Shown here: piece by piece, positions 9,696-54,404 of the stretch
Layout of the letters: every line of letters begins with the position of its first letter
How positions within the stretch are numbered: the stretch's first letter is position 1
From: Theionarchaea archaeon
GTDB taxonomy: Archaea > Methanobacteriota_B > Thermococci > Methanofastidiosales > SZ-28-30
Assembly (NCBI GenBank): GCA_018992565.1
Contig: JACVGW010000003.1
Coordinates: 178-64,177, forward strand
Length of the DNA: 64,000 nt
Direction of reading: 5' to 3'
Notes under the pieces: generated by a model
What the model was told of the DNA's origin: nothing
Databases searched by the model: none
Seen by the model: the letters and a program-made list of their open reading frames with translations, nothing else
Position numbers and translations under genes: made by a program

Positions 9696-9699
9696 CGGA

Positions 9700-10611: not shown

Positions 10612-11589
10612 CTAGTACACAATTCTTGGATCTAAATAGGCATAGAGAATATCTGCCACCAGGTTTGCCACCAACACCATCAGGGCGATAAACAAGAACG
10701 AAGCCTGGGCCAGTGGATAATCAAAGGTCAGGGTTGCATCCACAATCAATTTACCCAACCCTGGGTACGAAAAGGTGGTTTCCGTGAGAACACCCCCTCC
10801 CACAGACCCGGCAACTGCAATGGCAAAAGCGGTCACCACGGGCAGCATGGCATTACGGGCAGCATGCCTGTCTCTGATTGTTTTCTCCGGTAACCCCTTT
10901 GCTCTGGCTGTCATGATATAGTCTTCTCGGAGCGTCTCCAGCATACTGGTACGCATCACCAGCATGCTCCCTGCAAAGAATGCCAGAGTCAAGACGGACA
11001 ACGGCAGTGCCACATGGTGCAAGACATCTAGCGCCTTGAGCCATATACTCGACGTGGGGTCTGACCAGACATCAGGGCCTTTCAGCCCTCCTAGCGGGAA
11101 TAAACCGAATTTATAGGAAAATATCCACAGCATGATGAGTCCCACCCAGAAAATCGGCATACAATAGAAGAACAGCCCAAAGAGTGTGGACCCAAACTCA
11201 AGCTTTCCTCCCCTCCTCCAGGCAATGATCTTGCCAAGTGTTATTCCCAGACTGTACGAAATGACATAAGACCCTGTCCACAAGAGAAGTGTTGCAGGGA
11301 GCTTCTCCATCACCAGATCGTAAACAGGCCGTGCATAGTAAAACGAACGCCCAAAATTCCCCCTGAAGAAATTCTTAAGATACAAAAGATATTGATACCA
11401 TATTGGCTTATCAAGACCAAACTGAGCTCGAATGATGGCTTTGTGCTCAGGTGTCATTCTGGTATCCAGCATGAAAGCAGTTGGATCTCCAGGCATCATT
11501 CTAAAGAGAATGAACATAATTGTCATAATAATTATCAGGGTTAAGAATATCTGTACTACCCTCTTTACGATGTACTTTTGCATGCTCAC
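10612..11589 (-). CDS. oppB: oligopeptide ABC transporter permease (OppB/DppB type)
   Basis: EAA-loop permease; motif MTARAKGL typical of OppB/DppB. Confidence 0.85.
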   Translation of the reverse strand: MSMQKYIVKRVVQIFLTLIIIMTIMFILFRMMPGDPTAFMLDTRMTPEHKAIIRAQFGLDKPIWYQYLLYLKNFFRGNFGRSFYYARPVYDLVMEKLPATLLLWTGSYVISYSLGITLGKIIAWRRGGKLEFGSTLFGLFFYCMPIFWVGLIMLWIFSYKFGLFPLGGLKGPDVWSDPTSSIWLKALDVLHHVALPLSVLTLAFFAGSMLVMRTSMLETLREDYIMTARAKGLPEKTIRDRHAARNAMLPVVTAFAIAVAGSVGGGVLTETTFSYPGLGKLIVDATLTFDYPLAQASFLFIALMVLVANLVADILYAYLDPRIVY

Positions 11590-40021: not shown

Positions 40022-41045
40022 GAGGCGTGTCGCTTTCGTGGGGCTCTTGCTCCCGCTCCTGGTTGTCGCAACAGGGGTTCCCATCTCCTGCTGCATTTCA
40101 GACCCAACGGTGACAGTGATATACGACGTGAATGTGAACATGGAATTACTGAAACTCCTCAGTAAGGAAGGGTTTTCATACCAACTGGTGGAAGACATTG
40201 TTCCTTCTTTTGGTGCCACTGGCACACGGGAATTCGTCATGTACAGAGCCCACTACGGACTGGCCACCGCCATGGTAGCCTCTGACATGGTGGTTTTGAA
40301 GACTCACGAGGAGAAATATGACTGGGAAACCGGGGTAAAAACAGAACTCCTCTTTCTGCAAACAATTGGAGCTATAGGATACATGGATATAGAGACAATA
40401 TCCCGGGTGGCTTCCTGGGAGACTACCTCAGGCAAGAACCTGTTTCTCATTCCAGACGAGGTAGACACTGTCGTGTTCGGGGATAACCAGTATCCTGCAG
40501 GACAATCAGTGACAACAACCTACCTCTGTATCAAGAACAGGTGGCTTGCTGTGCCAGGAAATGGTCTCGTTTCTGTGGCGGGGAGTGTCCTCACCGTGAC
40601 ATTGCTGCGATGTGGAGGAGAAATCTCAGCAGACACCAGCAAATTGTCGCTCTTTGGTCCCTTCAGAGAAGTCGTCCTTGTGTGCAACTCCATAGATTTC
40701 GAGATGACTGGCAGAGAACTCAGGACTATCCTTACTGAAAAGGGATACAGGGTAAGAAGGATAGACCCTCAGGAATTTATGGTATACCGGTGGTTTTCGC
40801 CGAGAATCATCCTCCTGGGTGGTCATGAATCACCTGAGGGCATGGGAGACATTGTTGCCTCTCTGCTCACTCAGTCTGAGAAACAGATGATTGAGAATAC
40901 AGGCCCATACCTGTTTTCAATTGAGGGTAGAGATTTCAGGAAGCAGTCCATGGTCATCCTCGCTGGAAAAGACAGGGAAGGAACTCATGATATCACAATG
41001 GACAGAATTGATGATATTGTCATGTGGATTGAGGCGTACTCCTAG
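40014..41045 (+). CDS. N-terminally membrane-anchored hypothetical protein, translationally coupled to the C11 peptidase
   Basis: Start moved to MHKRRVAFVGLLLPLLVVATG, overlapping the peptidase stop by 8 nt; single TM then a soluble domain. Confidence 0.4.
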   Translation: MHKRRVAFVGLLLPLLVVATGVPISCCISDPTVTVIYDVNVNMELLKLLSKEGFSYQLVEDIVPSFGATGTREFVMYRAHYGLATAMVASDMVVLKTHEEKYDWETGVKTELLFLQTIGAIGYMDIETISRVASWETTSGKNLFLIPDEVDTVVFGDNQYPAGQSVTTTYLCIKNRWLAVPGNGLVSVAGSVLTVTLLRCGGEISADTSKLSLFGPFREVVLVCNSIDFEMTGRELRTILTEKGYRVRRIDPQEFMVYRWFSPRIILLGGHESPEGMGDIVASLLTQSEKQMIENTGPYLFSIEGRDFRKQSMVILAGKDREGTHDITMDRIDDIVMWIEAYS

Positions 41046-41350
41046 TACATACCATTTTTGAGCGCGGGTAACTCTCTTTCAGCACAGTCTCAAGTCCATA
41101 GCGCGAAATACACTACACTACAGTGAAGTCCAACCTTGCTGACGCCGAGGATTGGCTGATTTCCAGAATATCGCTGGACATATATACGCAGGAAGGATAA
41201 AAACCAATATTCTCAATCAGTATGCCACTCTTTTTCAAAATATTCGCAATTCATGCCCCTCATATTGTGTTATTTACAATTTCTTGCCCATATTACTCAA
41301 AAAGCTTTATAAGCCTGCATGGGCAGAAGAGGAAAAGAGGGAGACTTCTC

Positions 41351-42391
41351 ATGAAGAACCTTCATAGCCTCGTCTACAGCGTAGCAAGAGCCATGTACAG
41401 GCAGGACCCTTACAAGGTAACATATGCTGTGACCTACCAGTGTAACGCGCGGTGTAAAATCTGCAACATCTGGAAGAAATATGTACAGGTGCCACAGAAA
41501 AAAGCAGAAGAATTGACCTTACCTGAGATTGGTGCTATTTTTTCACAGTTTGATCTTTCATGGGTTTCACTCACAGGGGGAGAACCCTTTCTGCGGGATG
41601 ATCTTGTTGACATTGTATCAGCTATTGAAGAGTGTAGCCCTCATCTCAGCCTGTTGACTATTCCCACCAATGGATCCTTGCCTGAGACTGCACGCAGGGC
41701 TACAGAGTCAATTCTGGAAGAAACCCGCATCCAGAATGTTGTCGTCACAGTGAGTGTAGATGGAGATGAACTCCTGCATGACGAACTGAGAGGTGTGCCC
41801 GGCCTGTGGAAAAAGGCTCGTACCTTGTATCACATGCTTTCAAGCATGGAAAATGACAGATTCAGTGTTTTGCTGGAATTCACCGTCTCTAAACACAACG
41901 CAGGCTATCTGGACAGAGCTATCCGCTCCTTTGGCGCAGACTACTCACAGGTGGTGATCACGGCTGCCCATTCGTCCTACTTCTACCGAACCGAACTTCA
42001 CCATCTTCACAACTCGAGTTCTGCTCAGCAGGTGAGTCAGTTCAATGCTTCATGCCCACGATATGATCCTCGGAGCATTCTTTCTTTTCTCTATACCCGA
42101 TTACTTGAAAAATATCTGAAGGGGACTCCTGTTCCTCTTCACTGTGTCTCTGGACGTTCATCTTTCTTTTTGGATCCATATGGGGTCTTATATCCCTGCA
42201 TAACCATGGAAACACCTTTTGGCAGTCTCCGTGAGGATTCCTTACACAATCTCCTGAAGGGAGAACGCGCATCTGCTATTATCCACCGCATAAGGGATCA
42301 CAAATGTCCTGGATGCTGGACACCCTGTGAAGCATACCAGACAATAGTGGAGAACTTGCCCCGTGCAGTCATCGCAGCCTGCACCAGATAG
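41351..42391 (+). CDS. radical SAM enzyme with a SPASM/twitch-like Cys-rich C-terminus
   Basis: CxxxCxxC (YQCNARCKICNIW) near the N-terminus; C-terminal Cys cluster YPCI...CPGCWTPCEAY; start taken at MKNLHS; TATA-like AAAAGCTTTATAAG about 40 nt upstream. Confidence 0.65.
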   Translation: MKNLHSLVYSVARAMYRQDPYKVTYAVTYQCNARCKICNIWKKYVQVPQKKAEELTLPEIGAIFSQFDLSWVSLTGGEPFLRDDLVDIVSAIEECSPHLSLLTIPTNGSLPETARRATESILEETRIQNVVVTVSVDGDELLHDELRGVPGLWKKARTLYHMLSSMENDRFSVLLEFTVSKHNAGYLDRAIRSFGADYSQVVITAAHSSYFYRTELHHLHNSSSAQQVSQFNASCPRYDPRSILSFLYTRLLEKYLKGTPVPLHCVSGRSSFFLDPYGVLYPCITMETPFGSLREDSLHNLLKGERASAIIHRIRDHKCPGCWTPCEAYQTIVENLPRAVIAACTR

Positions 42392-42468
42392 AATGGTTCT
42401 TTGTTCTGGCAATGTACCTCACCATCTGCGGAGAGAACATATTTAAGCAATAGAATTGTTTCCATCAA

Positions 42469-42873
42469 ATGCTGAAAGGAATGCCTGCCCAGTTTATAAA
42501 ATTCTGCCTGGTAGGGAGCACCGGAGCTCTGATCCATCTGGGATTGCTCTATTTCCTCACTGAGTTCTGCAACGTGTGGTATATCCTCTCGGCCGCCCTC
42601 GGGTTCACTGCCGCTGTTTTGAACAATTTTGTGTGGAACAGAGTGTGGACCTTCAAGAGCAAGAGCCCCCGCATTCCCCAACAGCTCTTCCTGTTCTTCA
42701 TCGTAAACATTATTTCTCTCTGCATCAACCTATCCGTGCTGTTCCTGTTGACTGAATATGCAGGCATATGGTATGTAAAAGCACAGATCATAGCTATTCT
42801 TGTGGCAGTGAGTAACAACTTTCTCGGAAACAGGAGGTTCACCTTCTCGATGCTTATTCTCATCTCCTGGTAG
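42469..42873 (+). CDS. GtrA-family membrane protein
   Basis: Four TM helices with the GtrA signature FIKFCLVGSTGALIHLGLLYFL...NNFVWNRVWTFK. Confidence 0.65.
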   Translation: MLKGMPAQFIKFCLVGSTGALIHLGLLYFLTEFCNVWYILSAALGFTAAVLNNFVWNRVWTFKSKSPRIPQQLFLFFIVNIISLCINLSVLFLLTEYAGIWYVKAQIIAILVAVSNNFLGNRRFTFSMLILISW

Positions 42874-42973
42874 TCTTCTCAACTCCGATAACCTCGCCTC
42901 ATGCATGATCCATGCCCTCTGCCACCTGCTTACCAAACCTTAAAAGGGGAACTGCGTCTGTGTACCTGGTGAT

Positions 42974-43702
42974 TTGTTGGATGTTCCACGCTTCAAAATC
43001 GAGGACGTAGAGCTGCCCATTATGACATGCGGATCGGCTCCTTTCATAGGACTCGGATACTTCGGATTTTCAGCTTTCAACTACAGAGTGAAATTCTACA
43101 ATCATCCAGATAACATGGCAGACATATTTACCCACTTTGTCAGGCAGGGATGCAAGAGTGCACATGTGCTGTGTTACGACAATATCATGAAGGCAATCAG
43201 GATGGCTTATGAAGTGGAGAAGTTTCCCATCATGGCATCTCTGGTTTCCGCAAAATCCATTGCTTCGCAACTGAAAGCCCTCTCTCGCCTGGAGACAGTC
43301 CTGGTCTTTGTGGACCCTTTGCAGAGCGATGCCCTCAACGTGTCCACCCTTCAGAAAACCATCAAATCCATACGAGATGCAGGAATGGTACCGGGCCTGG
43401 CCACATACATACCTGGCAGCACCATCCCTGCAGTTGAAGATATTGGACTGGACATTGCTGCATATTTAGTTCCTGTGAATAAGCAGGGAAAATACATGCA
43501 GCCCACAAAAGAAAAGACACTTGCTGCCATAGCCAGCACAGACAAGAAAATCGTAGCGATGAAACCCCTGGCCATAGGGAAGATATCGCCCCGAGAAGGG
43601 TTCCCCTTCGTTCTGGAACACTGCCATGGATTCTGTGTGGGATTCACCAGCAAAGAACAGGTTGATGAGGCCTATCACGTTCTCAGTGAGATTACCCCCT
43701 AG
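42974..43702 (+). CDS. hypothetical protein
   Basis: 242-aa ORF with no recognisable motif. Confidence 0.35.
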   Translation: MLDVPRFKIEDVELPIMTCGSAPFIGLGYFGFSAFNYRVKFYNHPDNMADIFTHFVRQGCKSAHVLCYDNIMKAIRMAYEVEKFPIMASLVSAKSIASQLKALSRLETVLVFVDPLQSDALNVSTLQKTIKSIRDAGMVPGLATYIPGSTIPAVEDIGLDIAAYLVPVNKQGKYMQPTKEKTLAAIASTDKKIVAMKPLAIGKISPREGFPFVLEHCHGFCVGFTSKEQVDEAYHVLSEITP

Positions 43703-43735
43703 TTCTGGAGCATAAGAGAGGATCAATTGTCCAGA

Positions 43736-44716
43736 CTAGGACTGAGATGTGAGGAATGCATCAATGAGCGGTGTGCAGTCCAGAGCCTGTTCAGGATAGT
43801 CTCTGGTGAAGGTCTTGGAGGGAACAGTGTTTGTCACCAGCAGGTCCTTTCCCAGAATATCCACAAGTCGTCTCAAGTTATCCTCCCCAGTTATGAGAGG
43901 AAGTGCATGAGTTGCAGCAAAGGCGAATTGCGTGGCACCCTTTTCAAGGGTATGCTCCCTGGTTTTCAGCAGCGTGCCCCCGGTAAGAATAAGATCATCC
44001 ACAAAAGTAAGGCTCTTTCCTTCTACAGGGAAATCACCCATGAGTGTACTCTCTACTGAGCTGGTTCTCTTCTTCCCAAATCCGTCCAGTCCCAGTCGGA
44101 CCTGTGCTCCTTCATCAGGAGCGACAAGTTCTGACCCGGGAAATCTCTTCTTGATTTCCTCAAGCAGGTATGGTACCATGGACAGGTCAATAATTCTTCC
44201 ACTGGCTCTCAACGTAGTGAACCACTCCACATTCCAGGGGTGAGGATCAATTATACCCACTCGGGAAACGTAGTGCAGAAACACCTCAAGAGCACTTCGT
44301 GCTGAATTACATTCCCCTGTCCTCACTGCATGATCCTGCTTTCCCGAAGGCATACACGTGAGAAGGAGAAGTATCTCCCGGGGATTCTCAAGGGGAGAAT
44401 GTCTGTATTCCTTGTGGCCCACTTCCTCCACTGAATAGAGGTTTCTGAGCAGGTGCAGGATCTGGATTACCTCGAAAATTCTGTCCTGAGTGGTGAATTT
44501 TTCCTGTTCTAATTCGCCTGAATAGTTGCCTGACTGGATAACACACACCTTTTTCCCCTGAAGCTTTTCAATTTCCTCTATGCGCGTGTATAAGTCCCCA
44601 TTGTAAAAGAACCGTCTTCCATCGTAGTTCAGTCCTGAAGTGAATACCTGATACCCTCTCTTTTCAAGTGGCTCTTTCAGATGTTCAGCGCCAGAAGCCA
44701 GAATGAGGTTCCACAT
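43736..44716 (-). CDS. ribose-phosphate pyrophosphokinase-like phosphoribosyltransferase
   Basis: PRTase motif VDDLILTGGTL and upstream LVAPDEGAQVRLGLDGFGKKR resemble PRPP synthetase C-terminal-domain motifs. Confidence 0.45.
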   Translation of the reverse strand: MWNLILASGAEHLKEPLEKRGYQVFTSGLNYDGRRFFYNGDLYTRIEEIEKLQGKKVCVIQSGNYSGELEQEKFTTQDRIFEVIQILHLLRNLYSVEEVGHKEYRHSPLENPREILLLLTCMPSGKQDHAVRTGECNSARSALEVFLHYVSRVGIIDPHPWNVEWFTTLRASGRIIDLSMVPYLLEEIKKRFPGSELVAPDEGAQVRLGLDGFGKKRTSSVESTLMGDFPVEGKSLTFVDDLILTGGTLLKTREHTLEKGATQFAFAATHALPLITGEDNLRRLVDILGKDLLVTNTVPSKTFTRDYPEQALDCTPLIDAFLTSQS

Positions 44717-44720
44717 GTCC

Positions 44721-46682
44721 TCACCTCCTGAGTTCTACCAGGCCATGCTCTTCCAGGAATCCAAAATACCATTTCAGAAACTCAAGTGAGCTCTGCCCTA
44801 TCTCATAGGTGAGCAGTCTGTTTATTTCTGAGAGTGTCCTCTCACCATCACTCCAGTACACAGCCAGAGTTTCCAGAAGCCGGGACGCTTTGACACCTTC
44901 TTGTTTCTTCTCGAAAGCTCTCCGCTGTTCAAAAGACATGTCCAGAAGGACCTTTCGTGTTGAGATTGGCCCAGGATAGACTCTCACAGGTACCCAGGTG
45001 CATTCCTCCTGGTTCTCCTTTTCAGGGGCGCTCTCATACTGCTTCACTCTCTCTTTTTCTGCAGACACCACCTGCTTCAGCTCGTTCTCAAGGGGTTCTG
45101 TATCAATTTCTGCCAGCGTTTTGACAGAACGAATAGCATGGATTTCTCGATCCAGGAGATAGTCAAGCTGCCCCACATAGTCCCAGGTCGCATCTCGTTC
45201 TTTTTCTCCTTCTATTCCTCTTCCTTTTCCATCTTTTTGCTTTTTCTTATCAGTCCCATGCTTCTTGAGTTCTTCATCAGCCAGAATGGTGACAATCTCC
45301 CGTCCTTTTCGTATGATTCGTTCCTTTGCCTTTTCCATGACGATGAAAGCCAGCCATTGTGCTTCCTCTTCTCCTGCTGCAGCTATGAAATATGCATAGG
45401 TAGCTGTGAGAATACTGACTCTCTTCATTGAAGCAGGATCAATCTTGTCTATGGTATCCAGTGACGAATGATAGAACATGTCGGGCCACTGAATAATCAT
45501 GGGGCAGGGAACTCCCACTGTTGGATCCGACAATACCAGGTGATCACTCCCACCAGAAAAGGGTGTGACTGCATGTCTGAATGTGGCATACTTGGTACTG
45601 CCAGAGAAATTACCGATCTCATGGGTGAGCTTCTCAAATATGACTTCAGCCAGGTCATTCACAAAAGAAGGCATAGCATGAGGAGTCCTCTCCAGCAGCA
45701 GGGTGGAGTTGCACACCTCCTGGGTTTCCCCCACCATGTCCAGGTTAAGCGCTGCCACCATCCCGGGCAGGTCCTTCTCATGGGAGGCAAGGTACGCCAC
45801 TGTCCCGTGAATTTCAGGAACCAGAAGAAATCGGATGCTTCTCCTGGGGTTCTTCAGCTTGTTCTCGTCAATGAGATGCTTCAATGCCCTGGCAACCTCC
45901 ATGAGTGCCCCATCTCCAGAAGCATTGTCATTGGCACTGGGCTGAGGATGGCATAAATGAGCAACCACCAGGACCTCCTCATCTGACTCGCCGGGAATCA
46001 CTGCATCCACCACTTCCATTGCTCCCGGGTACAGTGAAGACTCAATCGTCATTCTCCCTTTCACGCTCTTGGTTTCTCTTACCATTTTTCTCAGGGCTTC
46101 TCCTTTTCGAGGTGAAAGTACAAACCCTGACGCTTTCTCTCCCCAGAAAGAGAAATAATGAACAGCATCAGGAACATCAATCCGGGTTCTCTCACTGATT
46201 TCCCGTATTCCAGAGGTTAGTATCCCTGCAGCCCCATAGTGCAGAGCCAAATCTTTGATCTTTTCCAAAGACAATGGGGAATGAATGATTTTTCCTTTAA
46301 TATTTTGGAAATCTTTTTCATCATCGCCGTCAATATGGACTATTTCCGCTTCAACAGCCACAGGATGGCTTCTCTGTATCAAAGAGACTTTTTCATCTCT
46401 GAAATCTGCCCATATTTTCCCTTCAATCTCCAGGACAGCAGAGTCAACCTTCCACTCGTCAGGAAGCAGGTATGACCAGTACATGGTCCTGCCATCAGCG
46501 GGAAACTCGCACACGTGGCAGTCGAGACCCCACTCTTTGAGTTGGTTGCAGCACCACAATGCAGCCTCTCTAAAATGGGGTGAAACCTGTATTCGGTGAA
46601 ATCTGGTAACCTCATGAGCCAGATTTTTTGCGTTCTGGCCTGATATCTCTTTTTCTACTGCGTGAAAGATGTAGTCAAACAT
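44721..46682 (-). CDS. M28-like zinc peptidase / aminopeptidase-like protein (DUF4910-type) with a C-terminal winged helix
   Basis: M28-style metal-ligand context VVAHLCHPQPSANDNASGDGALMEVARAL; N-terminus FHRIQVSPHFREAALWCCNQLKEWGL typical of DUF4910 proteins; C-terminal HTH-like tail. Confidence 0.45.
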   Translation of the reverse strand: MFDYIFHAVEKEISGQNAKNLAHEVTRFHRIQVSPHFREAALWCCNQLKEWGLDCHVCEFPADGRTMYWSYLLPDEWKVDSAVLEIEGKIWADFRDEKVSLIQRSHPVAVEAEIVHIDGDDEKDFQNIKGKIIHSPLSLEKIKDLALHYGAAGILTSGIREISERTRIDVPDAVHYFSFWGEKASGFVLSPRKGEALRKMVRETKSVKGRMTIESSLYPGAMEVVDAVIPGESDEEVLVVAHLCHPQPSANDNASGDGALMEVARALKHLIDENKLKNPRRSIRFLLVPEIHGTVAYLASHEKDLPGMVAALNLDMVGETQEVCNSTLLLERTPHAMPSFVNDLAEVIFEKLTHEIGNFSGSTKYATFRHAVTPFSGGSDHLVLSDPTVGVPCPMIIQWPDMFYHSSLDTIDKIDPASMKRVSILTATYAYFIAAAGEEEAQWLAFIVMEKAKERIIRKGREIVTILADEELKKHGTDKKKQKDGKGRGIEGEKERDATWDYVGQLDYLLDREIHAIRSVKTLAEIDTEPLENELKQVVSAEKERVKQYESAPEKENQEECTWVPVRVYPGPISTRKVLLDMSFEQRRAFEKKQEGVKASRLLETLAVYWSDGERTLSEINRLLTYEIGQSSLEFLKWYFGFLEEHGLVELRR

Positions 46683-46735
46683 GGACTGAGATGAGGACTA
46701 CGGCTTATAATTGTTATGGTTTAGAGGTCTGAAAA

Positions 46736-48094
46736 TCATCCTGCCACTTCGATTTCCTCAAAGGCGAGCTGCTCATACCGCTCCATGACTCTCTCATAAA
46801 ATCCCGGCAGAAACGTTCTTCCATCCTTTGCTGGACATCTGTTGTTGATAAGGTTGTGAGGGTTTCTGATTCCCCGCATTCGATTCGGTGATTCCTCCCA
46901 TATTGCCCTGAGAGGTGTCTCCAGCACATTGCCATAGACAGTCTCTTCATCGAATCGTCCTGGACATACCTGCACAATACCATTGGCTCTGATGTACAGA
47001 CCTACTGCAGCCTGGTTACATGGAGTACACCCCACATATGCTGCAATACCTTCTGTCTGGATTTCCTCGTGAGTCTGCACCCCTTTTTTCACATTGTACA
47101 CGTAAATCCTGGCGTATAACTCAACTAACCGGCTTTGCCATTCTTCTGCAGTCAACACTCTTTTCTGTCTCTCCAGCTGGCTGCATCCCTTTCCGCTGAC
47201 CATTGAAGGTGTCATAAAGATAGGAGTCCCCCGTTCCACAAAGAAGGCATAAATATGGAAAGATTCCTCAAGGTTTTCAGGGACGATAGGAGCATTAATC
47301 ATGCACAACCTGTCGGTCACACTATTCCTGTAGAAAGCAGATTCAAACAAATATTCCAGAGCTCTGTCTCTCAAAAGGGAATATTCCTGCAACCCTTTGA
47401 TATCCCCGTTTTCACTAACGGTGGTCACTAGACTATTCTGTCTTACATGGTCAAATGACTGGAAGGAAAACAGGAGCGACACTCCTTGATTTCCGGCAAG
47501 TTCATCTACCAGTGCCTCTGCGTCCATTCCCTGGTACTTCTGCGCCAGTTCATCACTCCCCAGAATGGCACCTTTGGTAAAAATGCAGAAATGGACTTTT
47601 CTCTCCGAATACATGTCGATGATTTCGAACAACTGTGGGTTCATCAGCAGCTCACCCGGGCCCAGGAACTTCACATATTCGAAATCATGACCTTCTGAAT
47701 CTGCTATCTCCCTGGCCTGGTCAATCACTCCAAAAGTCTCTTTGAGAGTCATCATTCGGTTAATTCTCTGCGTTCCTGATCCATCGAGTGCTGCTTTTCC
47801 ATCGAACCCCACTTTGTACTGGGAATAGACTGCACTCTCCTCATTGAAACAAAAAGGGCAGTTATGCAGACACAGTGCTCTTCTGTACAGAGAGGCCACA
47901 CATTCAGTCTCCTGTGGATCGTTGTGCCGTGCCACCACATCTTCTGGAATGTGTTCCAGATCCAGCATATAGAGCCCGGGAACTGCATCTGTCGTGTACA
48001 GTCCTTTTGCCGTATTTTTCCATCCATGCCTTACCTTTCCTGGAAAAACTGCCGGGAATCTCTTTTCCAGCATTTCCTTTGACATACACATCAC
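46736..48094 (-). CDS. radical SAM enzyme with a Cys-rich SPASM/twitch-like C-terminal region
   Basis: CxxxCxxC (ALCLHNCPFCFNE) and C-terminal CTPCNQAAVG...VCPGRF cluster. Confidence 0.6.
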   Translation of the reverse strand: MMCMSKEMLEKRFPAVFPGKVRHGWKNTAKGLYTTDAVPGLYMLDLEHIPEDVVARHNDPQETECVASLYRRALCLHNCPFCFNEESAVYSQYKVGFDGKAALDGSGTQRINRMMTLKETFGVIDQAREIADSEGHDFEYVKFLGPGELLMNPQLFEIIDMYSERKVHFCIFTKGAILGSDELAQKYQGMDAEALVDELAGNQGVSLLFSFQSFDHVRQNSLVTTVSENGDIKGLQEYSLLRDRALEYLFESAFYRNSVTDRLCMINAPIVPENLEESFHIYAFFVERGTPIFMTPSMVSGKGCSQLERQKRVLTAEEWQSRLVELYARIYVYNVKKGVQTHEEIQTEGIAAYVGCTPCNQAAVGLYIRANGIVQVCPGRFDEETVYGNVLETPLRAIWEESPNRMRGIRNPHNLINNRCPAKDGRTFLPGFYERVMERYEQLAFEEIEVAG

Positions 48095-48452
48095 ACTCCT
48101 TCTTTCGGTTTGAAGCAGTTTCTTAATGTATGCTATGGTTACTATATAAATCTTACTATTTCTACGTCAATGATGAATAACCTTAATAAAAAGGTAATAT
48201 ATCCTTTTTCAATCTCACTTTTTCACACAATAAGGTTGCATCCATTAATTCACAAAGAGGAGAAAAGAGAAAAAAGTCAGAAGAGCAGTGCGAAGAGACG
48301 CCAAGGCACTTCGGTCTCGATTCTATCCAATATAACAATGGGCAGTATGCAAAGACTATCGCACAGCTACGAAAGGCTCACAAATCCCTGGAGTCTTGAA
48401 AATCTGTGCTTCTTGGGAAGCAGAGGTCCATCTGATCTGGAGGTATCCTGTT

Positions 48453-50285
48453 TCATTCTTCTGTTTGCTGCAGAGCCTTTACAGAAACGATGGAAATGAA
48501 TCGTTCCCTCTCATGGTCGACATACAGCAGGTGCACGCTCTCCAATTGATATACAGCCTCGTCCAATTCGTAGACAGACATTCCAGTCATTTTCTCCAAC
48601 TGAGATCTGGGCGTAACGCTGTCACAGCACTTAAGAACGACAGTTTCCTGTTCAGTAAGCAGATACGTTTTGTTTCCGCTGAAACTGTTGGTTTCTTCAA
48701 TGAGAGATGTTCCGTCGCGGAATTCCAGCCAGATGTAGGAAATATCAGCTCTCTGATACTGTTCCAATAATTGGACAAATTCATCCCACAGCTGATGGTG
48801 TTCCAGAGTGCGAGCTCTGAATCCAAAAAAGTCCCATCTCTGATCCGGTGGAATGCTGTTAAGCCTCTCAATTTCCTCATATAGTATATTAACCACCCAC
48901 CTGGTCTTCAGTGCATCAGGAAGGGTTTCATTGTAGTATGGTGTCCCTTTGTACAGGCTGAGCTCAGAGGGAGTCAAATGATACCATGGCAGAAAGAATC
49001 GCAGATACATGAGATTCTCAATGCTCTCAATTACATCCTCTTCACGTTCCTGAGGAAGGTTTCGAATGACATTCGAGCCAGAAATATCCACCCCGTAGTC
49101 CCTTCCGAATTTGAAGGCCTGTATGTTCTCTGAAACTCGGTGCATCTTTCTCATGCCGTGCAGCAGTGGATCGCTCAGCGACTCAAATCCTATCTGGATA
49201 TGCATTCGTATCTTGCTCATCATCTCAACATAGTCCCGGGATAATGCAGTGGGAGAAATGGTTATCCACATGTGATATGGCTTTTTCCGTCTATCTACGC
49301 TTGCCAGCAATCCTTTGAGGAGCGCTCTGAAGTCAACATCACGTTTCCTTCCAAAGTCAGTATCAAGAAAAACAAACCGATGAGTGGCATGCCTCTGTGA
49401 TTGATATTCTATTTCATCGACAACTTCCTGCACTGGTCTTTCGTAGTAGGAATCCCCTCTGTTTACGCCGCAGAATTTGCATTTATTCCATTTACATGAC
49501 CGAACCCCCAGTATTGGAATCGCTGGGGAAATATCCAGTCCATACTGATCGACTCTTTCAAAGTAGTCTGTGTGGTCTGCCCATGGGAGAGCTTCCGGGC
49601 GGAAGTCGCCAACCTTTTTTGTGCAGGTCAAAACACCCTTCTTGCGGTAGACCAGCCGGGGAACCTCTGAGAGAGCTTCTACATCTTCCATTCGCTTCGC
49701 CAATTCTCCCAGGGGGACCTCACCTTCACCCCATATGGCAAAATCTACATTCCTCTGTACCTCCATGAAAGTCTGTGCATCCTCCAGAGTTGCCAGCCCT
49801 CCCACAACAACGCGGATATTGGGGTTCAAACGTTTCAGAGCGGACCAGATATAGCTGTTCAATATCCATTGATAGAAATTCACGGTGAAGCCAGCCATAT
49901 CTGCATCTGCCATGTCATCATTCTCAAGTGAATAATCCACAAAGGCTTTGAAGTCCTCCCCAATCCTGGTCATTTTCTCACGAATCGCATATGAAGTGAT
50001 GAGAGACTCAATCGTGGTGAGACCCTTCACATGTGGAGTCTCAAAGAAAAAACGGGATAAATAAATAGTCAAAACAGTTGGCGCTTCAAATATGTCAATG
50101 CATCTCTCTCGAAATCTCGAAAAAAGAGATGTCAAAGGGGTTATGATCTCGTCAGGAGGGAGGTACCAGTAAATATTCCTGACAGCAAGGTGCTGGGATG
50201 CTGTGCTCTTGAGGTATCCCAGAGCAGCATTCGGAATTTCCATGAGATATGGGAAATTCGCATGAAGATGGAGAGCTCGGACCAT
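48453..50285 (-). CDS. B12-binding-domain radical SAM enzyme (class-B-like)
   Basis: N-terminal Rossmann-like B12-binding region (VVVGGLATLEDAQTFMEVQRNVDFAIWGEGE); radical SAM Cys cluster SCKWNKCKFCGV (CX4CX2C spacing); 610 aa. Confidence 0.6.
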   Translation of the reverse strand: MVRALHLHANFPYLMEIPNAALGYLKSTASQHLAVRNIYWYLPPDEIITPLTSLFSRFRERCIDIFEAPTVLTIYLSRFFFETPHVKGLTTIESLITSYAIREKMTRIGEDFKAFVDYSLENDDMADADMAGFTVNFYQWILNSYIWSALKRLNPNIRVVVGGLATLEDAQTFMEVQRNVDFAIWGEGEVPLGELAKRMEDVEALSEVPRLVYRKKGVLTCTKKVGDFRPEALPWADHTDYFERVDQYGLDISPAIPILGVRSCKWNKCKFCGVNRGDSYYERPVQEVVDEIEYQSQRHATHRFVFLDTDFGRKRDVDFRALLKGLLASVDRRKKPYHMWITISPTALSRDYVEMMSKIRMHIQIGFESLSDPLLHGMRKMHRVSENIQAFKFGRDYGVDISGSNVIRNLPQEREEDVIESIENLMYLRFFLPWYHLTPSELSLYKGTPYYNETLPDALKTRWVVNILYEEIERLNSIPPDQRWDFFGFRARTLEHHQLWDEFVQLLEQYQRADISYIWLEFRDGTSLIEETNSFSGNKTYLLTEQETVVLKCCDSVTPRSQLEKMTGMSVYELDEAVYQLESVHLLYVDHERERFISIVSVKALQQTEE

Positions 50286-50631
50286 GCACTAAGGTTTATC
50301 CTGACTATATATAGGTTTGTAATTTTCCGGTTATTACAAAAGGGAGTAAGCACGTCTTTCCACAATCTTTTATCAGTGCTGCCTCTTCACACATCTAAAA
50401 TCTCTAAAATAAGATAAAATCGTTTTTTATAATGAAATCACTCTTGTGATAAGAATATCCATAGTTTGAGCTGAATTTCATAAGTAAAGAATAGATAAAG
50501 TTTCAAATTTAATATCTTTTTCAAGGAAAGTATATTTTCAAACTGCTTCTCGAATATAATTCTACATGGGGGGCTCAATCACTTGACATCCTGATCCCAC
50601 AAAGTCAGTTCAAATAGCGAAAAAGAAACGA

Positions 50632-50645
50632 AAAGCTTATAAGTA
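50632..50645 (+). promoter_or_regulatory. BRE/TATA-like promoter element AAAGCTTATAAGTA upstream of the small KF-repeat ORF
   Basis: Lies about 32-45 nt upstream of the ATG at 50677; near-identical AAAAGCTTTATAAG precedes the radical SAM gene at 41351. Confidence 0.35.
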
Positions 50646-50676
50646 TTATGGTTAAGTAATGAAAGAGGTGATTTGG

Positions 50677-50757
50677 ATGGTATTTAAGGCAGATGAAGTT
50701 GAAGAAACAGATTCCAAATACAAGTTCAAATTCAAGTTCAAGTTTAAATTCCACTAA
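50677..50757 (+). CDS. unannotated 26-aa small ORF MVFKADEVEETDSKYKFKFKFKFKFH (candidate RiPP-like precursor, or a small amphipathic peptide)
   Basis: ATG preceded by SD AGAGGTGA (5-nt spacing) and the TATA-like element; in-frame (AAGTTC)5-type hexanucleotide repeat encoding alternating Lys-Phe; TAA stop followed immediately by an oligo-T tract; sits between divergent radical-SAM and TldD/TldE operons. Confidence 0.35.
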   Translation: MVFKADEVEETDSKYKFKFKFKFKFH

Positions 50758-50766
50758 GCTGTCACG

Positions 50767-50788
50767 TTCTTTTTCTTTATCTTTTTCC
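50767..50788 (+). terminator. oligo-T tract (TTCTTTTTCTTTATCTTTTTCC) after the small ORF
   Basis: Archaeal-terminator-like T-rich run starting 10 nt after the stop codon; a second TATA-like box (TTATAAAAT) follows before the TldD gene. Confidence 0.35.
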
Positions 50789-50879
50789 AAGGTGATTTTC
50801 GTTATAAAATATCAGTAACTGTTCAGATGTACGTATCGCTCACCATGCCTTTTTATAGGGGTAACAATGAAAATACTGT

Positions 50880-52256
50880 ATGCTCGACATTCTGGAAAAA
50901 GGAGTAGCCACAGCAAGAGGGATGGCAGACTACATTGAACTCCGAGGTGAAGAACGTGTATTGACATATATAACGTATTCTGATGGGAGAATTGACAATG
51001 TGAGTAGCATCATCCATTCGGGTGTGGGATGCAGGGTGCTGTATGATGGAGCGTGGGGATTCAGCTGTGGTCGGATGGATGCTCTGGAACACCTGGTGAG
51101 AGATACGTGTTCTCTGGCCAGGGCAGCATCATATCACAGAAAGGAAAGAATAGAGCTGCAGGACATTAACCCACAGCAGGATGAAAGAGCTCTTACGTGC
51201 AGGACGCCTCCTCACCACGTTGCTCTTGAACGGAAAATCTCAAGGCTGAAAACCGTGCATGATCTCATAAGGGTGTATGACCCCCGAATTGGGGCAGTCT
51301 CTATCGACTATGAAGATTCACATGGGACAAAATGTCTGGTCACCAGTGAAGGTACAGCACTTACCCAAGAAACAAGCCATCTCTATAATCACTGCTGGGT
51401 AACAGGAAAGGAGAGTGGTGCACTGACAGCTGCCAGAGATATAACGGGATCAACGGAAGAAGGGTTTGAATTTTTTGAAAAAGAGTCAGAAGAAAGAATA
51501 GCTGAAAGGGTATGCAGTCGAGTCATTATGCAACTGAACGGGAGAATTGCCAGAAAGGGGACATTTCCCTGCGTTTTGGGTTCCAGGGTAGTGGGGATCC
51601 TTGCCCATGAAGCACTGGGGCATTTGGTAGAAGCTGATCTGACAGGAAGTTCACCCTTCAATAACAGGCTTGGAAAAAAAGTCAGTACAGATTCTGTGAA
51701 CGTGGTGGATGCACCCGTCAAGGGGACATTTGGCAGTACCTCGTACGATGATGAAGGTGTTCCAACTGGACCTGTGGATATCATCAAGAATGGAGTCCTG
51801 TGTGGGTTGTTGACTAACAGAGAGTACGCTTTCAAGACAGGAATTCCAGTATGTGGAGCTGCCAGAGCAGAAAGCTTCTTGTACCCTCCCCTCATCCGAA
51901 TGAGAAACACTTTTTTTGACTGTGGAGACCTTCACGAGGAAGAACTACTTGAGGGCATCAGATTTGGGTATTACTGCAAAGACTTTCGAGGAGGGGAGGC
52001 TGACCTGAGTTCCTGGTTCCAGATAGGTATCCAGGAAGCATTTGAAATAGTAAATGGTGAAATAGGTGATCCGGTAAAGGAGGTCTCCATCAGTGGGTTG
52101 GCCACAGAAGCTCTCCTGTCAATTGAAGGAATAGGTAACACTCTGGGATTTCTTGGAGGGTACTGTGGAAAAGGACAGCAGGCAGCAGTCTCAGCAGGTG
52201 GTCCACCCCTCAGATTCCCAGAGGGTGTCATCTTGTTTGGAGGGAGAATGCCATGA
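50880..52256 (+). CDS. tldD: TldD-family metalloprotease
   Basis: PmbA/TldD-family fold throughout; C-terminal GG...GG motifs; 458 aa; 4-nt overlap with the next gene. Confidence 0.75.
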   Translation: MLDILEKGVATARGMADYIELRGEERVLTYITYSDGRIDNVSSIIHSGVGCRVLYDGAWGFSCGRMDALEHLVRDTCSLARAASYHRKERIELQDINPQQDERALTCRTPPHHVALERKISRLKTVHDLIRVYDPRIGAVSIDYEDSHGTKCLVTSEGTALTQETSHLYNHCWVTGKESGALTAARDITGSTEEGFEFFEKESEERIAERVCSRVIMQLNGRIARKGTFPCVLGSRVVGILAHEALGHLVEADLTGSSPFNNRLGKKVSTDSVNVVDAPVKGTFGSTSYDDEGVPTGPVDIIKNGVLCGLLTNREYAFKTGIPVCGAARAESFLYPPLIRMRNTFFDCGDLHEEELLEGIRFGYYCKDFRGGEADLSSWFQIGIQEAFEIVNGEIGDPVKEVSISGLATEALLSIEGIGNTLGFLGGYCGKGQQAAVSAGGPPLRFPEGVILFGGRMP

Positions 52257-53581
52257 AAGACGTCTGTGAACATGCAGTTCTTGCGGGTGAAACATGCGGT
52301 GTAGACGAGATCGAGGCATTCTGGTCCCGTGATACTGTGATCACTGTTGAAGCAGAAATGGGTCAGATAAGCACGGCTTCAAAAGTATGTACTGAAGGAA
52401 TGCGCATACGGGTAGTAAAGGAGAAAGCTGTGGGTTCAGTATATAGCTACCGAATGGATAGAGACTCTGTTGAATGCGCAGTGAGAAGAGCAGCCAGCGC
52501 TGCCCGGGTGTCCTCGCGGGATGAGGACTGGCATTCATTACCCTCACCTGGAAGATATAGTCAGGTGTGCCTCTGGGATCTTTCAATAGCAAGGGCGGAC
52601 CTGGAGGACCTGGTGACTCCCGTTGCAGAGACATTCACGTCAATTCCTGATGGTGTTAGAGTGCACTTTGTGGGCAATGAGGTCGTGGTGAGAGAGCAGT
52701 GCTGTCTCAATACCAGTGGAATTGCCCATGAGGACAGGACAACGCTGCAGAGGTATGGTGTCATGGCAGTTGGGAAGATGCAGCAAAGGGTATCTCCTGC
52801 TTTCAGAGAGGTAGTCTTCTCCAGAAGCTTGGATGTTGCTGTTCACGAAAAAGCTGAAGTGCTCTGGAAGAAAATTGCTCTCTTCATGAATTCGGAATCT
52901 GCTTCTTCGGGTGCATTCTCCGTAGTTCTTTCTCCTCCAGCACTGCAGGAAATCCTGTATTACACCTTATTTAGAGCAATTTCAGGCGAAAACGTATCCA
53001 GGGGGAGATCACTCTTGAAGAGAAGAGAGGGGGAAAAAATAGCACATTCTGCCTTTTCATTGCGCGACAATGGAATCAGCCCCCGAGGAGCAAATTCCCA
53101 TGAGATGGATGATGAAGGTGTTCCCTGCCAGGACACGAATCTTGTTGAAGAAGGTATACTCCAGGGCTTCATCTGGAATGATTACTGGGCAAAGAGGGAG
53201 GGCTACACAAGCACAGGAAATGCTCATTACCAGACAAGAACCAGTGCACTCGCGGTCCAACCCACCACCATGGTAGTGACCCCAGGGGACCATGACGAAG
53301 CAGAGCTTCTTGATATTCAGGACGGATACTACATTCTGGACGTTCAGGGAGCCCATGCCTCTAACCCTGAATCGGGTGATTTCTCGGTCTTGTGTAATCC
53401 CGCTTTCAGAATCAGAAATGGAGAAATATCAGGTGGATGTACGGGCATGATGATGTCAGGCAACGTGTTTTCGCTGATGAAGAAAATTGATGCTATTGGA
53501 GGTGATGCCAAGGTATTACAAGCGGGAAGTTTCCCTTCAATACGATTCAACCAGGTGAACATTGCTGCAAAAAGAACATGA
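52253..53581 (+). CDS. TldE/PmbA-family protein, partner of TldD
   Basis: Second PmbA/TldD-family paralog directly coupled to TldD, the classic tldD-tldE pair. Confidence 0.7.
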   Translation: MKDVCEHAVLAGETCGVDEIEAFWSRDTVITVEAEMGQISTASKVCTEGMRIRVVKEKAVGSVYSYRMDRDSVECAVRRAASAARVSSRDEDWHSLPSPGRYSQVCLWDLSIARADLEDLVTPVAETFTSIPDGVRVHFVGNEVVVREQCCLNTSGIAHEDRTTLQRYGVMAVGKMQQRVSPAFREVVFSRSLDVAVHEKAEVLWKKIALFMNSESASSGAFSVVLSPPALQEILYYTLFRAISGENVSRGRSLLKRREGEKIAHSAFSLRDNGISPRGANSHEMDDEGVPCQDTNLVEEGILQGFIWNDYWAKREGYTSTGNAHYQTRTSALAVQPTTMVVTPGDHDEAELLDIQDGYYILDVQGAHASNPESGDFSVLCNPAFRIRNGEISGGCTGMMMSGNVFSLMKKIDAIGGDAKVLQAGSFPSIRFNQVNIAAKRT

Positions 53582-53603: not shown

Positions 53604-54404
53604 TTAGATCAGCACTATCAGCCGTCCAATCCTCCCCACACTGAGTTGGATTATACCTCTGTATGAATCTGCGTATCCATTCTCCACCCGTATCTTGTCA
53701 CCAACTCCAATCCAGCCTATCTGCTGGTTCCAGAGCACCAGGACGACCCGGCCTGTCTCATCTTTGAGAGCAGCATTACTGACGCTGAGCGGCTCACCCC
53801 TTCGAGAGCGCACAGGACGAGGCTCAGATTTCTCTACAATTTCACCTTCAATTGTGACATTTTTCATACCCGCTCTCAAATCACTGACCTTTGCCAATTC
53901 ATGAGAAGCAGATGGATCACGTATCCATTGATACCATCGACCCCTCCAGTCAGGGTTGCCGAGATCCCAGCCTATTTGAGTGAATCCCAGCTTTTCATAG
54001 AAGCCGGAGGTCCTTGTGTTCCACTCGGGAGTCCCCAGAGTCCACACCTGTACATCGGGATACAGATCCCAGAGAATCTCACATGCGCGAGTTCCAATAC
54101 CATTTCTGTGATGGGAGGGGTCAACAAAAATGCGCTCCAGCACCTTATGGGTCTTCCCTGCTGATCCCACCATGATACCTCCCAGAAGCGCATCATTCAC
54201 TACGATCTTGAAGTAGTCCAGAAATCCCATGAATCGCACCTGTGCCTCTGGTGAATCATAGCCAGGAGGACCTCCCACTCCAGGGCCAGGGGCCCCTACC
54301 TCACAGTCTGTGTGGAATGCCTTCTTGCAGATATCTGCCAGGATCGGGGCATCTTCTTCCCGTGCAGGCTCCAGTCGGACTTCAGTGTCTATTTCCATAT
54401 TCAT
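53604..54404 (-). CDS. GNAT-family N-acetyltransferase fused to a C-terminal OB-fold-like domain
   Basis: GNAT motif ERIFVDPSHHRNGIGTRACE; C-terminal ~95 aa (TGRVVLVLWNQQIGWIGVGDKIRVENGYADSYRGIIQLSVGRIGRLIV) resemble an SSB/RPA-type OB fold. Confidence 0.5.
   Translation of the reverse strand: MNMEIDTEVRLEPAREEDAPILADICKKAFHTDCEVGAPGPGVGGPPGYDSPEAQVRFMGFLDYFKIVVNDALLGGIMVGSAGKTHKVLERIFVDPSHHRNGIGTRACEILWDLYPDVQVWTLGTPEWNTRTSGFYEKLGFTQIGWDLGNPDWRGRWYQWIRDPSASHELAKVSDLRAGMKNVTIEGEIVEKSEPRPVRSRRGEPLSVSNAALKDETGRVVLVLWNQQIGWIGVGDKIRVENGYADSYRGIIQLSVGRIGRLIVLI

Follow-up and report, generated by a model that had tools for sequence, protein, structure and literature searches.

A conserved Lys-Phe repeat mini-gene clustered with radical SAM and tldD/tldE genes in Theionarchaea: the probable precursor of a modified peptide

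Introduction

What is the function of a 26-codon open reading frame (ORF) that spells alternating lysine and aromatic residues and sits between genes of radical S-adenosylmethionine (rSAM) enzymes and a tldD/tldE protease gene pair in an archaeal genome? This ORF, termed here the KF mini-gene, was picked out by an initial annotation of a 64,000-nt stretch of DNA (the window; contig JACVGW010000003.1 of the Theionarchaea archaeon assembly GCA_018992565.1), which proposed a candidate system for a peptide made on the ribosome and then modified post-translationally (RiPP). To our knowledge, archaea have yielded few ribosomally made peptide natural products, and there is no characterised example of one produced by rSAM enzymes. 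Full-text literature searches turned up no paper that deals with RiPPs in Theionarchaea; the KFKFKF peptides that they returned were synthetic and self-assembling, none of them natural. The KF gene is unannotated, though it is among the best conserved elements of its locus. Here we present an analysis of its conservation and neighbourhood, from which it is most likely the precursor of an archaeal modified peptide, because it always stands beside two rSAM enzymes and TldD/TldE.

Results

The KF mini-gene and its expression signals

The KF mini-gene reads ATG GTA TTT AAG GCA GAT GAA GTT GAA GAA ACA GAT TCC AAA TAC AAG TTC AAA TTC AAG TTC AAG TTT AAA TTC CAC TAA (Table 1). Residues 1-14 of the encoded peptide form an acidic leader, MVFKADEVEETDSK, and the remainder forms the core, YKFKFKFKFKFH, with charges of -3 and +5, respectively, as derived from the sequence. 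The pattern AARTTY in three tandem copies has four overlapping matches in the window, all at the KF ORF, compared to 0.01 predicted by shuffles, and no further run of at least three Lys/Arg-aromatic units was found in the six frames of the window. Tandem Repeats Finder detected a period-6 array at the KF repeat, and Rfam gave no known RNA family in positions 50200-50950. A scan for sigma-70 promoters and intrinsic terminators addresses bacterial-type signals and is uninformative for an archaeal host.

The coordinates and the translation given by the initial annotation were confirmed, together with the B recognition element (BRE)/TATA promoter and the Shine-Dalgarno (SD) sequence 5 nt from the ATG. 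Some of its details needed correction: its 390-bp intergenic region is the distance from the neighbouring rSAM gene to the KF ORF only, within a full spacer of 594 bp to tldD (50286-50879). It had also described the core as an (AAGTTC)n repeat; the hexamer repeat is indeed in frame, but the DNA repeat is imperfect, as the synonymous codons AAG/AAA and TTC/TTT alternate.

Table 1. Coordinates and products of the features in the window and in the related loci (L numbers) considered here; aa, amino acids.
Feature	Locus	Position	Strand	Remarks
BRE/TATA promoter of KF gene	window	50629-50643	+	CGAAAAGCTTATAAG
SD sequence of KF gene	window	50664-50671	+	AGAGGTGA; 5 nt ahead of ATG
KF mini-gene	window	50677-50757	+	26 codons; product MVFKADEVEETDSKYKFKFKFKFKFH
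T-runs, archaeal terminator-like	window	50767-50787	+	begin 10 nt past KF stop
B12-rSAM	window	48453-50285	-	610 aa; B12-binding and Radical_SAM Pfam matches
TATATATA box of B12-rSAM gene	window	50306-50313	-	~21-28 nt 5' of ATG; invariant in four loci
rSAM2	window	46736-48094	-	449-452 aa; CX3CX2C as CLHNCPFC
TATA box of tldD	window	50850-50859	+	TTTTTATAGG; 21-30 nt 5' of ATG; invariant in four loci
TldD metalloprotease subunit	window	50880-52256	+	HEALGH at residue 243; all three PmbA_TldD Pfam domains
TldE/PmbA-like partner	window	52253-53581	+	no HExxxH; 4-nt overlap with tldD
M28/DUF4910 peptidase	window	44721-46682	-	
PRPP-synthase-like protein	window	43736-44716	-	weakly ribose-phosphate-diphosphokinase-like
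Third rSAM	window	41222/41351-42391	+	radical SAM + SPASM; generic profile matches only
KF peptide	L019			MVFTAEEIEETNSKYKFKFKFKFKFH; B12-rSAM 79% identical to that of the window
KF peptide	L021			MIFTAEEVEETTSKFKFKFKFKFKFKFY; B12-rSAM 61% identical
KF peptide	L024			MVFTAEEVEETTSKFKFKFKFKFKFKFY; B12-rSAM 62% identical
KF peptide	L028			MEYNVEEVEETTSKFKFKFKFKFKFKFH; B12-rSAM 63% identical
Mini-ORF MEIVVEELEEISPKHPCDPAWDACMPGYSWL	L022 (also L026)	9681-9776 (L022)	-	divergent, 5' of a 53%-identical B12-rSAM clade
Mini-ORF MFVELLEPK..D.D..VPGDC..GGYAVF(AP)	L040	6248-6340, 9964-10053, 10530-10622	-	B12-rSAM 48% identical
Mini-ORF of the same family	L011	2597-2689	-	B12-rSAM 47% identical
Mini-ORF MEVVRLNKKMWTDATVEPLDFNPGPAVICGCGGGCCYGRW	L041			
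Mini-ORFs	L041	9948-10070, 4179-4343	+	unannotated or barely annotated, beside paralogous B12-rSAMs
Mini-ORF	L025	start 7100	-	unannotated or barely annotated, beside a paralogous B12-rSAM

Conservation of the KF gene at the protein level

Loci carrying homologues of the cobalamin (B12)-binding rSAM enzyme encoded divergently from the KF gene (B12-rSAM) were retrieved, and the KF ORF is present in four of them beyond the window, namely L019, L021, L024 and L028, which are divergent from one another. The peptide family could be traced only via these neighbour genes, because a protein-level search with the peptide gave nothing: phmmer with a 32-aa extended ORF found no match among 1.84 billion representative proteins. 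Gene annotation calls the KF gene in none of the related loci retrieved.

The five leaders share the consensus M-[VI]-F-x-A-[DE]-E-[VI]-E-E-T-x-S-K, followed by a core of the form (Y/F)K(FK)nF(H/Y) with 5-6 Lys-aromatic dipeptides, in peptides of 26-28 aa. The ATG is invariant, as is a GAGGTG SD 5-7 nt 5' of it, and a BRE/TATA consensus, CGAAAAnnTTTATAA, lies ~33 nt 5' of the ATG in all five loci, each of which also has oligo-T runs right behind the stop. The stop itself occupies one aligned codon, spelled TAA, TAA, TAA, TAG and TGA. Variable columns at codon positions 1/2/3 number 4/6/20 over the five sequences and 0/1/9 in the K/F core alone, and the pairwise proportion of nonsynonymous differences (pN) is 0.01-0.13, compared to 0.46-1.3 for synonymous ones (pS). 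The Lys and Phe codons shift between AAG and AAA and between TTC and TTT while the peptide stays constant, which argues for selection on the protein, not on the DNA repeat. Between loci, the repeat count differs by one KF unit, that is 6 nt in frame; in ten near-identical strain contigs the repeat has no length polymorphism, and three spacer substitutions were found there, one of them synonymous within the KF ORF. Judged from these substitution patterns, the KF mini-ORF is a genuine gene under purifying selection at the protein level. The initial annotation had allowed for an ORF that is not conserved in related genomes or that is a length-variable microsatellite; instead, reading frame, start and stop are kept in five loci, and the repeat length is constant among strains and changes between loci by the in-frame unit only.

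When the spacer is aligned over its full length, conservation is much the highest in the promoter-ORF-terminator block, and the remainder aligns poorly. The sole other conserved islands are the TATA boxes of the B12-rSAM gene (50306-50313) and of tldD (50850-50859). The KF gene lies directly 5' of tldD on the same strand in all KF loci, including the rearranged L028, at a stop-to-tldD distance of 122-463 nt with intervening sequence that cannot be aligned. Given its invariant TATA box, tldD should have its own promoter. Since the TATA boxes stand 21-30 nt ahead of the starts, the sequence suggests leaderless mRNAs for tldD and the B12-rSAM gene, whereas the KF gene would instead have a short 5' untranslated region with a strong SD.

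Five genes that stay together

Shared gene content was determined by tblastn of the window proteins against the related loci. Exactly five genes are common to all five KF loci: KF, TldD, TldE, B12-rSAM and rSAM2, the last encoding a second, SPASM/twitch-type rSAM enzyme. Identities to the window proteins are 64-78% for TldD, 56-71% for TldE, 61-79% for B12-rSAM and 72-86% for rSAM2. The flanks of L021 and L024 are unrelated and include HSP20, CDC48 and helix-turn-helix (HTH) genes. In L028, where the contig ends inside rSAM2, the order is B12-rSAM> <TldE <TldD <KF rSAM2>, so that the B12-rSAM gene is on the opposite side of the KF-TldD-TldE block compared to the other loci; the five genes are still contiguous. 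The retention of the cluster through turnover of its flanks and through this rearrangement is the main evidence for a putative functional link among the five genes.

A second mini-gene was observed in L019, the 80%-identical relative of the window, between the B12-rSAM and rSAM2 genes (10812-10898, plus strand; product MKLNVKKVENVATTAVADPWKESKVQCL), equipped with a TATA box, a GGAGGTGA SD and an oligo-T tail of its own. All that is left of it in the window, at ~48255-48345 (minus strand), is the 3' end and the terminator, a deletion of ~115 bp having removed the promoter, the SD and the 5' half. A second precursor gene as part of the conserved module was considered and rejected, as it is absent in L021, weakly alignable in L024 and a remnant in the window.

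The B12-binding radical SAM enzyme

The 610-aa B12-rSAM is identical on 21 public contigs, including those of GCA_018992855.1 and GCA_018992705.1, both from Theionarchaea. It combines an N-terminal B12-binding domain with a three-Cys rSAM core, the features of class B (cobalamin-binding) rSAM enzymes. The Pfam domains B12-binding (E up to 1, best 1.5e-06) and Radical_SAM are both found in 23 of 23 family members, and the window protein scores 23.4 bits on B12-binding, for which the gathering score is 32.1. The cluster motif C264/C269/C272 (C-KWNK-C-KF-C) is invariant in 23 homologues and has the spacing CX4CX2C, compared to the canonical CX3CX2C. Among the NCBIfam profiles, the enzyme scores highest with TIGR03975 (RiPP maturation radical SAM C-methyltransferase), at 140.6 bits (E 6e-41; cut-off 281.85) over profile positions 94-600 of 606. 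With 119 matches, the B12-rSAM family is confined to Theionarchaea/Methanofastidiosia. Scans with its alignment gave few true relatives, 2 in genome contigs and ~8 in metagenome contigs; the other matches, distant rSAMs of Asgard archaea and Desulfocapsaceae, were set aside.

The C-terminal ~115 residues (approximately 495-610) are predicted to fold into a winged-helix domain of three strands, three helices and a hairpin, with a predicted local distance difference test (pLDDT) score of 89. In this model, the topology is compatible with that of a RiPP recognition element (RRE).

The SPASM/twitch-type enzyme rSAM2

The Pfam SPASM domain scores 25.9 in rSAM2, above the cut-off of 21.5. The invariant C-terminal cysteines are C356, C374 and C417, an arrangement that resembles a twitch-like, single auxiliary cluster more than the full seven-Cys SPASM. 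Against the named NCBIfam maturase families (PapB, WgkB, StsB, MftC, HxsC and others), rSAM2 gave two matches, both at or below 28 bits, and fits none of them. Its AlphaFold2 model (pLDDT 92) has as best PDB matches anSME, the ChlB-ChlA peptide complex, DesII and SuiB, with E values of 1e-7 to 1e-5 and template modelling (TM) scores of ~0.5. The modelled fold places rSAM2 in the SPASM/twitch group, most of the top matches acting on peptides or proteins.

The rSAM2 family reaches well beyond the KF module, with unusual conservation over distant lineages: homologues that are 33-35% identical occur in Patescibacteria, and closer ones in DPANN archaea. Beyond the KF loci, we looked at the rSAM2-family loci L042, L045, L046 and L048. 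At three independent loci of DPANN type, the rSAM2 gene forms a divergent pair with that of a protein of ~300-330 aa carrying two AsnC-type HTH domains, in housekeeping surroundings; no homologue of this HTH partner was found in the window.

The TldD/TldE protease

TldD and TldE have the features of a TldD/TldE heterodimer, namely two adjacent genes of the PmbA_TldD fold with HExxxH in TldD alone. TldD scores 333 bits on NF040952, below the equivalog cut-off of 635. Orthologues 57-66% identical were found in more than 50 Theionarchaea/Methanofastidiosia clusters, and others 48-51% identical in Thor-, Bathy- and Hodarchaeota; that of DG-70-1 is 65% identical to the window, as close as those of L021, L024 and L028. 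The locus L047 has a B12-rSAM 56% identical, a TldD paralogue only 31% identical and no KF gene. A specialised TldD/E paralogue for the KF module was considered and rejected on the basis of the homologue search and the DG-70-1 locus.

With these results, the enzyme neighbourhood described by the initial annotation can be reassessed. Its suggestion that a small repeat ORF is syntenic with the rSAM and TldD/E genes is borne out, as the KF ORF occurs with B12-rSAM, one SPASM-type rSAM and TldD/E in all five loci having DNA. The proposed enrichment in peptide-tailoring enzymes holds for B12-rSAM, rSAM2 and TldD/E; it was overstated because the third rSAM, the M28 peptidase and the PRPP (phosphoribosyl pyrophosphate)-synthase-like gene are missing in L021 and L024. 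Concerning the profile searches, B12-rSAM matches a RiPP family best, though under its cut-off, and no rSAM reaches a named RiPP maturase family; the feared alternative, an assignment of the rSAMs to well-characterised non-RiPP families, was not encountered either. The roles it assigned to a SPASM-type rSAM as peptide tailor and to TldD/E as RiPP protease agree with their adjacency in five of five KF loci, and are qualified by the wide occurrence of the rSAM2 family in DPANN and of the TldD/E orthologue at a locus that has no KF gene.

Paralogous B12-rSAMs and their mini-ORFs

The settings of the B12-rSAM paralogues are RiPP-like. In L041 (GCA_018992705.1, also a source of the identical B12-rSAM), a 52%-identical paralogue stands beside a PqqD-domain protein and three more rSAM genes, and another paralogue is found amid two C39-type peptidases, a PqqD protein, an rSAM and glycosyltransferases. 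The neighbouring mini-ORFs differ by B12-rSAM clade, and a GAGGTG SD and oligo-T tail accompany each of them (Table 1). The MFVELLEPK..GDC..GGYAVFAP family occurs in two genomes, with three copies in L040, each copy after a hydantoinase_A-like gene; a Cys/Gly-rich mini-ORF containing GPAVICGCGGGCCYGRW is also among those beside paralogous B12-rSAMs. A short acidic start of the form ..EE[VIL]EE..[SP]K is common to two of the mini-ORF families, a likeness that is suggestive, given the few sequences compared. This pattern of neighbours suggests that a wider set of peptide precursors exists in Theionarchaea.

Other genes of the neighbourhood

The M28/DUF4910 peptidase, PRPP-synthase-like, GtrA-like and hypothetical genes and the third rSAM are shared by the window and L019 only. 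The third rSAM (41222-42391) has many NCBIfam matches of at most 54 bits, all below the cut-offs of 170-725. It belongs to a block (37559-42391) conserved only with L019, which also encodes an 820-aa protein with Peptidase_C11 and S-layer C-terminal domains and an overlapping 361-aa hypothetical protein; a GtrA-like gene (42469-42873) and a gene for a 242-aa hypothetical protein (42974-43702) adjoin it. By its domain content, this block may be a cell-surface maturation unit separate from the KF module. On the other side of the module, positions 53604-54404 (minus strand) encode a 266-aa protein with an N-terminal GNAT domain and a C-terminal SSB/RPA-like OB fold, 82% identical in L019.

Discussion

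A proposed route from the KF gene to a modified peptide

Protein-level selection on the KF gene and its clustering with four enzyme genes are established, and the enzymatic steps, the chemistry and the role of the product are what we infer below. A precursor with conserved leader and core, and genes of predicted modifying enzymes co-localised with it in five of five loci, are two of the features of a RiPP cluster in the generic sense; the data do not support placing it in a named RiPP family. From this gene content, we consider the locus a probable rSAM RiPP-type cluster with a new precursor class in this archaeal lineage, and it is probable that the KF gene encodes the precursor of an rSAM-modified peptide whose leader is removed by TldD/E.

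We propose that the KF peptide would come from a short transcript that has a strong promoter and a terminator of its own. The divergently encoded B12-rSAM, whose C-terminal winged-helix domain may serve to dock the leader, would modify the repeated core iteratively, either by C-methylation as in the nearest curated family or by forming an aromatic cross-link. The core would also be modified by rSAM2, probably through a side-chain cross-link. Eventually, TldD/TldE would trim the unmodified leader, whereas the modified core would resist digestion as in microcin B17 maturation.

Several observations weigh against this proposal. The five KF loci belong to a single archaeal lineage, and part of the synteny could be inherited; the KF module lacks any conserved gene for transport or immunity across them. 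Judged from its orthologues, the window TldD/E is the general enzyme of the lineage and not a cluster-specific protease: in DG-70-1, it is encoded 44 bp from an unrelated gene, with neither a KF ORF nor either rSAM alongside, and the adjacency of KF and TldD/E could reflect a retained insertion site instead of a dedicated protease. The B12-rSAM stays below the family cut-off of TIGR03975, and structure searches with its C-terminal domain returned generic winged helices only, the relation to PqqD/RRE being not significant. As for rSAM2, homologues 55-63% identical are found in Nano-, Pace-, Woese- and Micrarchaeota (DPANN), and no KF ORF, TldD/E or B12-rSAM was found near rSAM2 in the DPANN-type loci described above, which points to a substrate of the DPANN enzymes that differs from a KF peptide.

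Alternative explanations

In a rival account, unlikely in our judgement, the KF peptide is functional without rSAM modification. It could, for example, be an amphipathic, cationic beta-strand peptide that acts on membranes, binds nucleic acids or self-assembles; its acidic piece would keep it neutralised until TldD/E or another protease trims it, and the rSAMs would have other substrates. The gene is clearly real and conserved, its place directly 5' of tldD on the same strand persists even in L028, and the opposite charges of leader and core fit such a design. Synthetic KFKFKF peptides are known as self-assembling or adhesive beta-strand peptides, and the rSAM2 family is widespread without KF genes. 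It is harder to see on this account why both rSAM genes are contiguous with KF in all five loci despite the changed flanks of L021 and L024 and the rearrangement in L028, and why the B12-rSAM family pairs clade-specifically with different mini-ORFs. The DG-70-1 TldD/E without KF also argues that the peptide is no general accessory of this protease.

That same locus, where TldD/E works without a KF ORF, bears on a very unlikely explanation, by which the KF ORF is a cis-regulatory upstream ORF with a functionless peptide, ribosome stalling on the Lys and Phe codons tuning read-through of the oligo-T tract into tldD-tldE. The arrangement would suit it, with the ORF on the same strand directly upstream of tldD and an oligo-T terminator between them, as would a codon bias that leaves only Lys and Phe codons over 10-12 positions. 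Yet tldD has its own invariant TATA box, the spacing to tldD varies widely over unalignable sequence, and the leader is conserved at the amino-acid level with synonymous changes, which pure stalling would not need; the linkage of the rSAM genes is also left unexplained. A chance frame over a non-coding AAGTTC microsatellite, or a real product that is antisense, (Asn-Leu)n, can be regarded as effectively refuted. The period-6 array is there, antisense ORFs stay open across the repeat, and one antisense frame, (NL)n, shares the wobble positions, so that third-position variation alone is insufficient to exclude it. However, the peptide repeat is perfect despite an imperfect DNA repeat, conservation is just as strong in the non-repetitive leader, and ATG, SD, promoter, terminator and stop position, the last filled by three different stop codons, are conserved in the sense orientation only. 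By contrast, the antisense ORFs start with TTG within the repeat, lack SD and promoter, and end variably (29, 31 and 53 aa), and the repeat is free of length polymorphism in the ten strain contigs.

Wider significance

Should the KF gene encode the precursor of an rSAM-modified peptide, a small set of one peptide, two rSAMs and one protease could reveal new chemistry on Lys/Phe repeats and could show the role of the lineage-specific B12-rSAM family. An unmodified peptide, too, would count as a new and conserved small protein, one in which cationic and aromatic residues alternate in an unusual design. Candidates for rSAM peptide clusters are common, though, and a housekeeping role is plausible for two of the four partner genes.

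A bolder version of the modified-peptide reading, which we hold to be improbable, takes the (KF)n gene as the first of a new archaeal class of rSAM-modified peptide; B12-rSAM and rSAM2 would methylate or cross-link every Lys-Phe or Phe-Lys-Phe unit of the core, and TldD/E would release a poly-modified cationic peptide or several small Lys-Phe-derived molecules. The B12-rSAM family with its clade-specific mini-ORFs would then make up an archaeal RiPP superfamily. Cutting of the precursor into small molecules is considered because no exporter is conserved with the module; if true, the product would be a metabolite or cofactor derived from a peptide, as pyrroloquinoline quinone (PQQ) and mycofactocin are.

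Comparison with known systems

The biphenomycin-type pbs/bpm clusters combine an FRF motif, a B12-rSAM that forms a biaryl cross-link across it and a TldD-type leader protease (PMC12257519). They resemble the KF cluster in having a precursor that is short and carries an aromatic-basic-aromatic motif (FRF in those clusters, FKF in repeated form here), a B12-rSAM, here predicted to act on the peptide, and a TldD-type HExxxH metalloprotease that could cut the leader. However, the cross-link of biphenomycin requires a Phe ortho-hydroxylated by a multinuclear non-heme iron oxidative (MNIO) hydroxylase. The ten Pfam-scanned ORFs at 39.9-54.4 kb include no MNIO (DUF692), partner protein, arginase or cupin, and the related loci gave no DUF692 call. 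The two systems also differ in the protease, which is a stand-alone TldD there and a TldD/TldE pair, the general orthologue of the lineage, here. In addition, the motif is repeated 5-6 times here and the host is an archaeon; the B12 enzymes are likened by class.

The methyltransferases of TIGR03975 provide the best curated match of the window B12-rSAM, and iterative modification of their kind would suit a (KF)n core. This family includes enzymes beside proteusin/NHLP-type precursors. Compared to them, the window enzyme scores below the cut-off and has the CX4CX2C motif, and the KF precursor of 26-28 aa has a 14-residue leader instead of a long NHLP/Nif11-type leader.

Repeated motifs are also found in precursors of rSAM/SPASM enzymes. 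Streptide (made by SuiB), triceptides, ryptides and darobactin come from precursors modified by such enzymes, and so do the poly-cyclopropylglycine RiPPs, whose precursors carry TVGG repeats (PMC9062424, PMC10878394). They share with the KF system a small precursor, a tandem-repeat core of a short motif with aromatic and/or basic residues and a SPASM/twitch rSAM next door, and the structural neighbours of rSAM2 include SuiB and ChlB-ChlA. Nevertheless, rSAM2 fits no curated maturase family, its TM scores reach only ~0.5, and its family is found mainly in DPANN archaea without such precursors.

The modifications of microcin B17 are heterocycles installed by a cyclodehydratase complex, not by radical SAM enzymes. 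In its maturation, E. coli TldD/TldE digests unstructured peptide and spares the modified core (PMC5810440). The E. coli TldD/E is a housekeeping enzyme encoded away from the mcb genes, whereas here tldD/tldE are adjacent to the precursor gene. In both systems, a heterodimeric TldD/E is associated with a short precursor, and for the KF peptide we likewise propose digestion of the leader and survival of the core.

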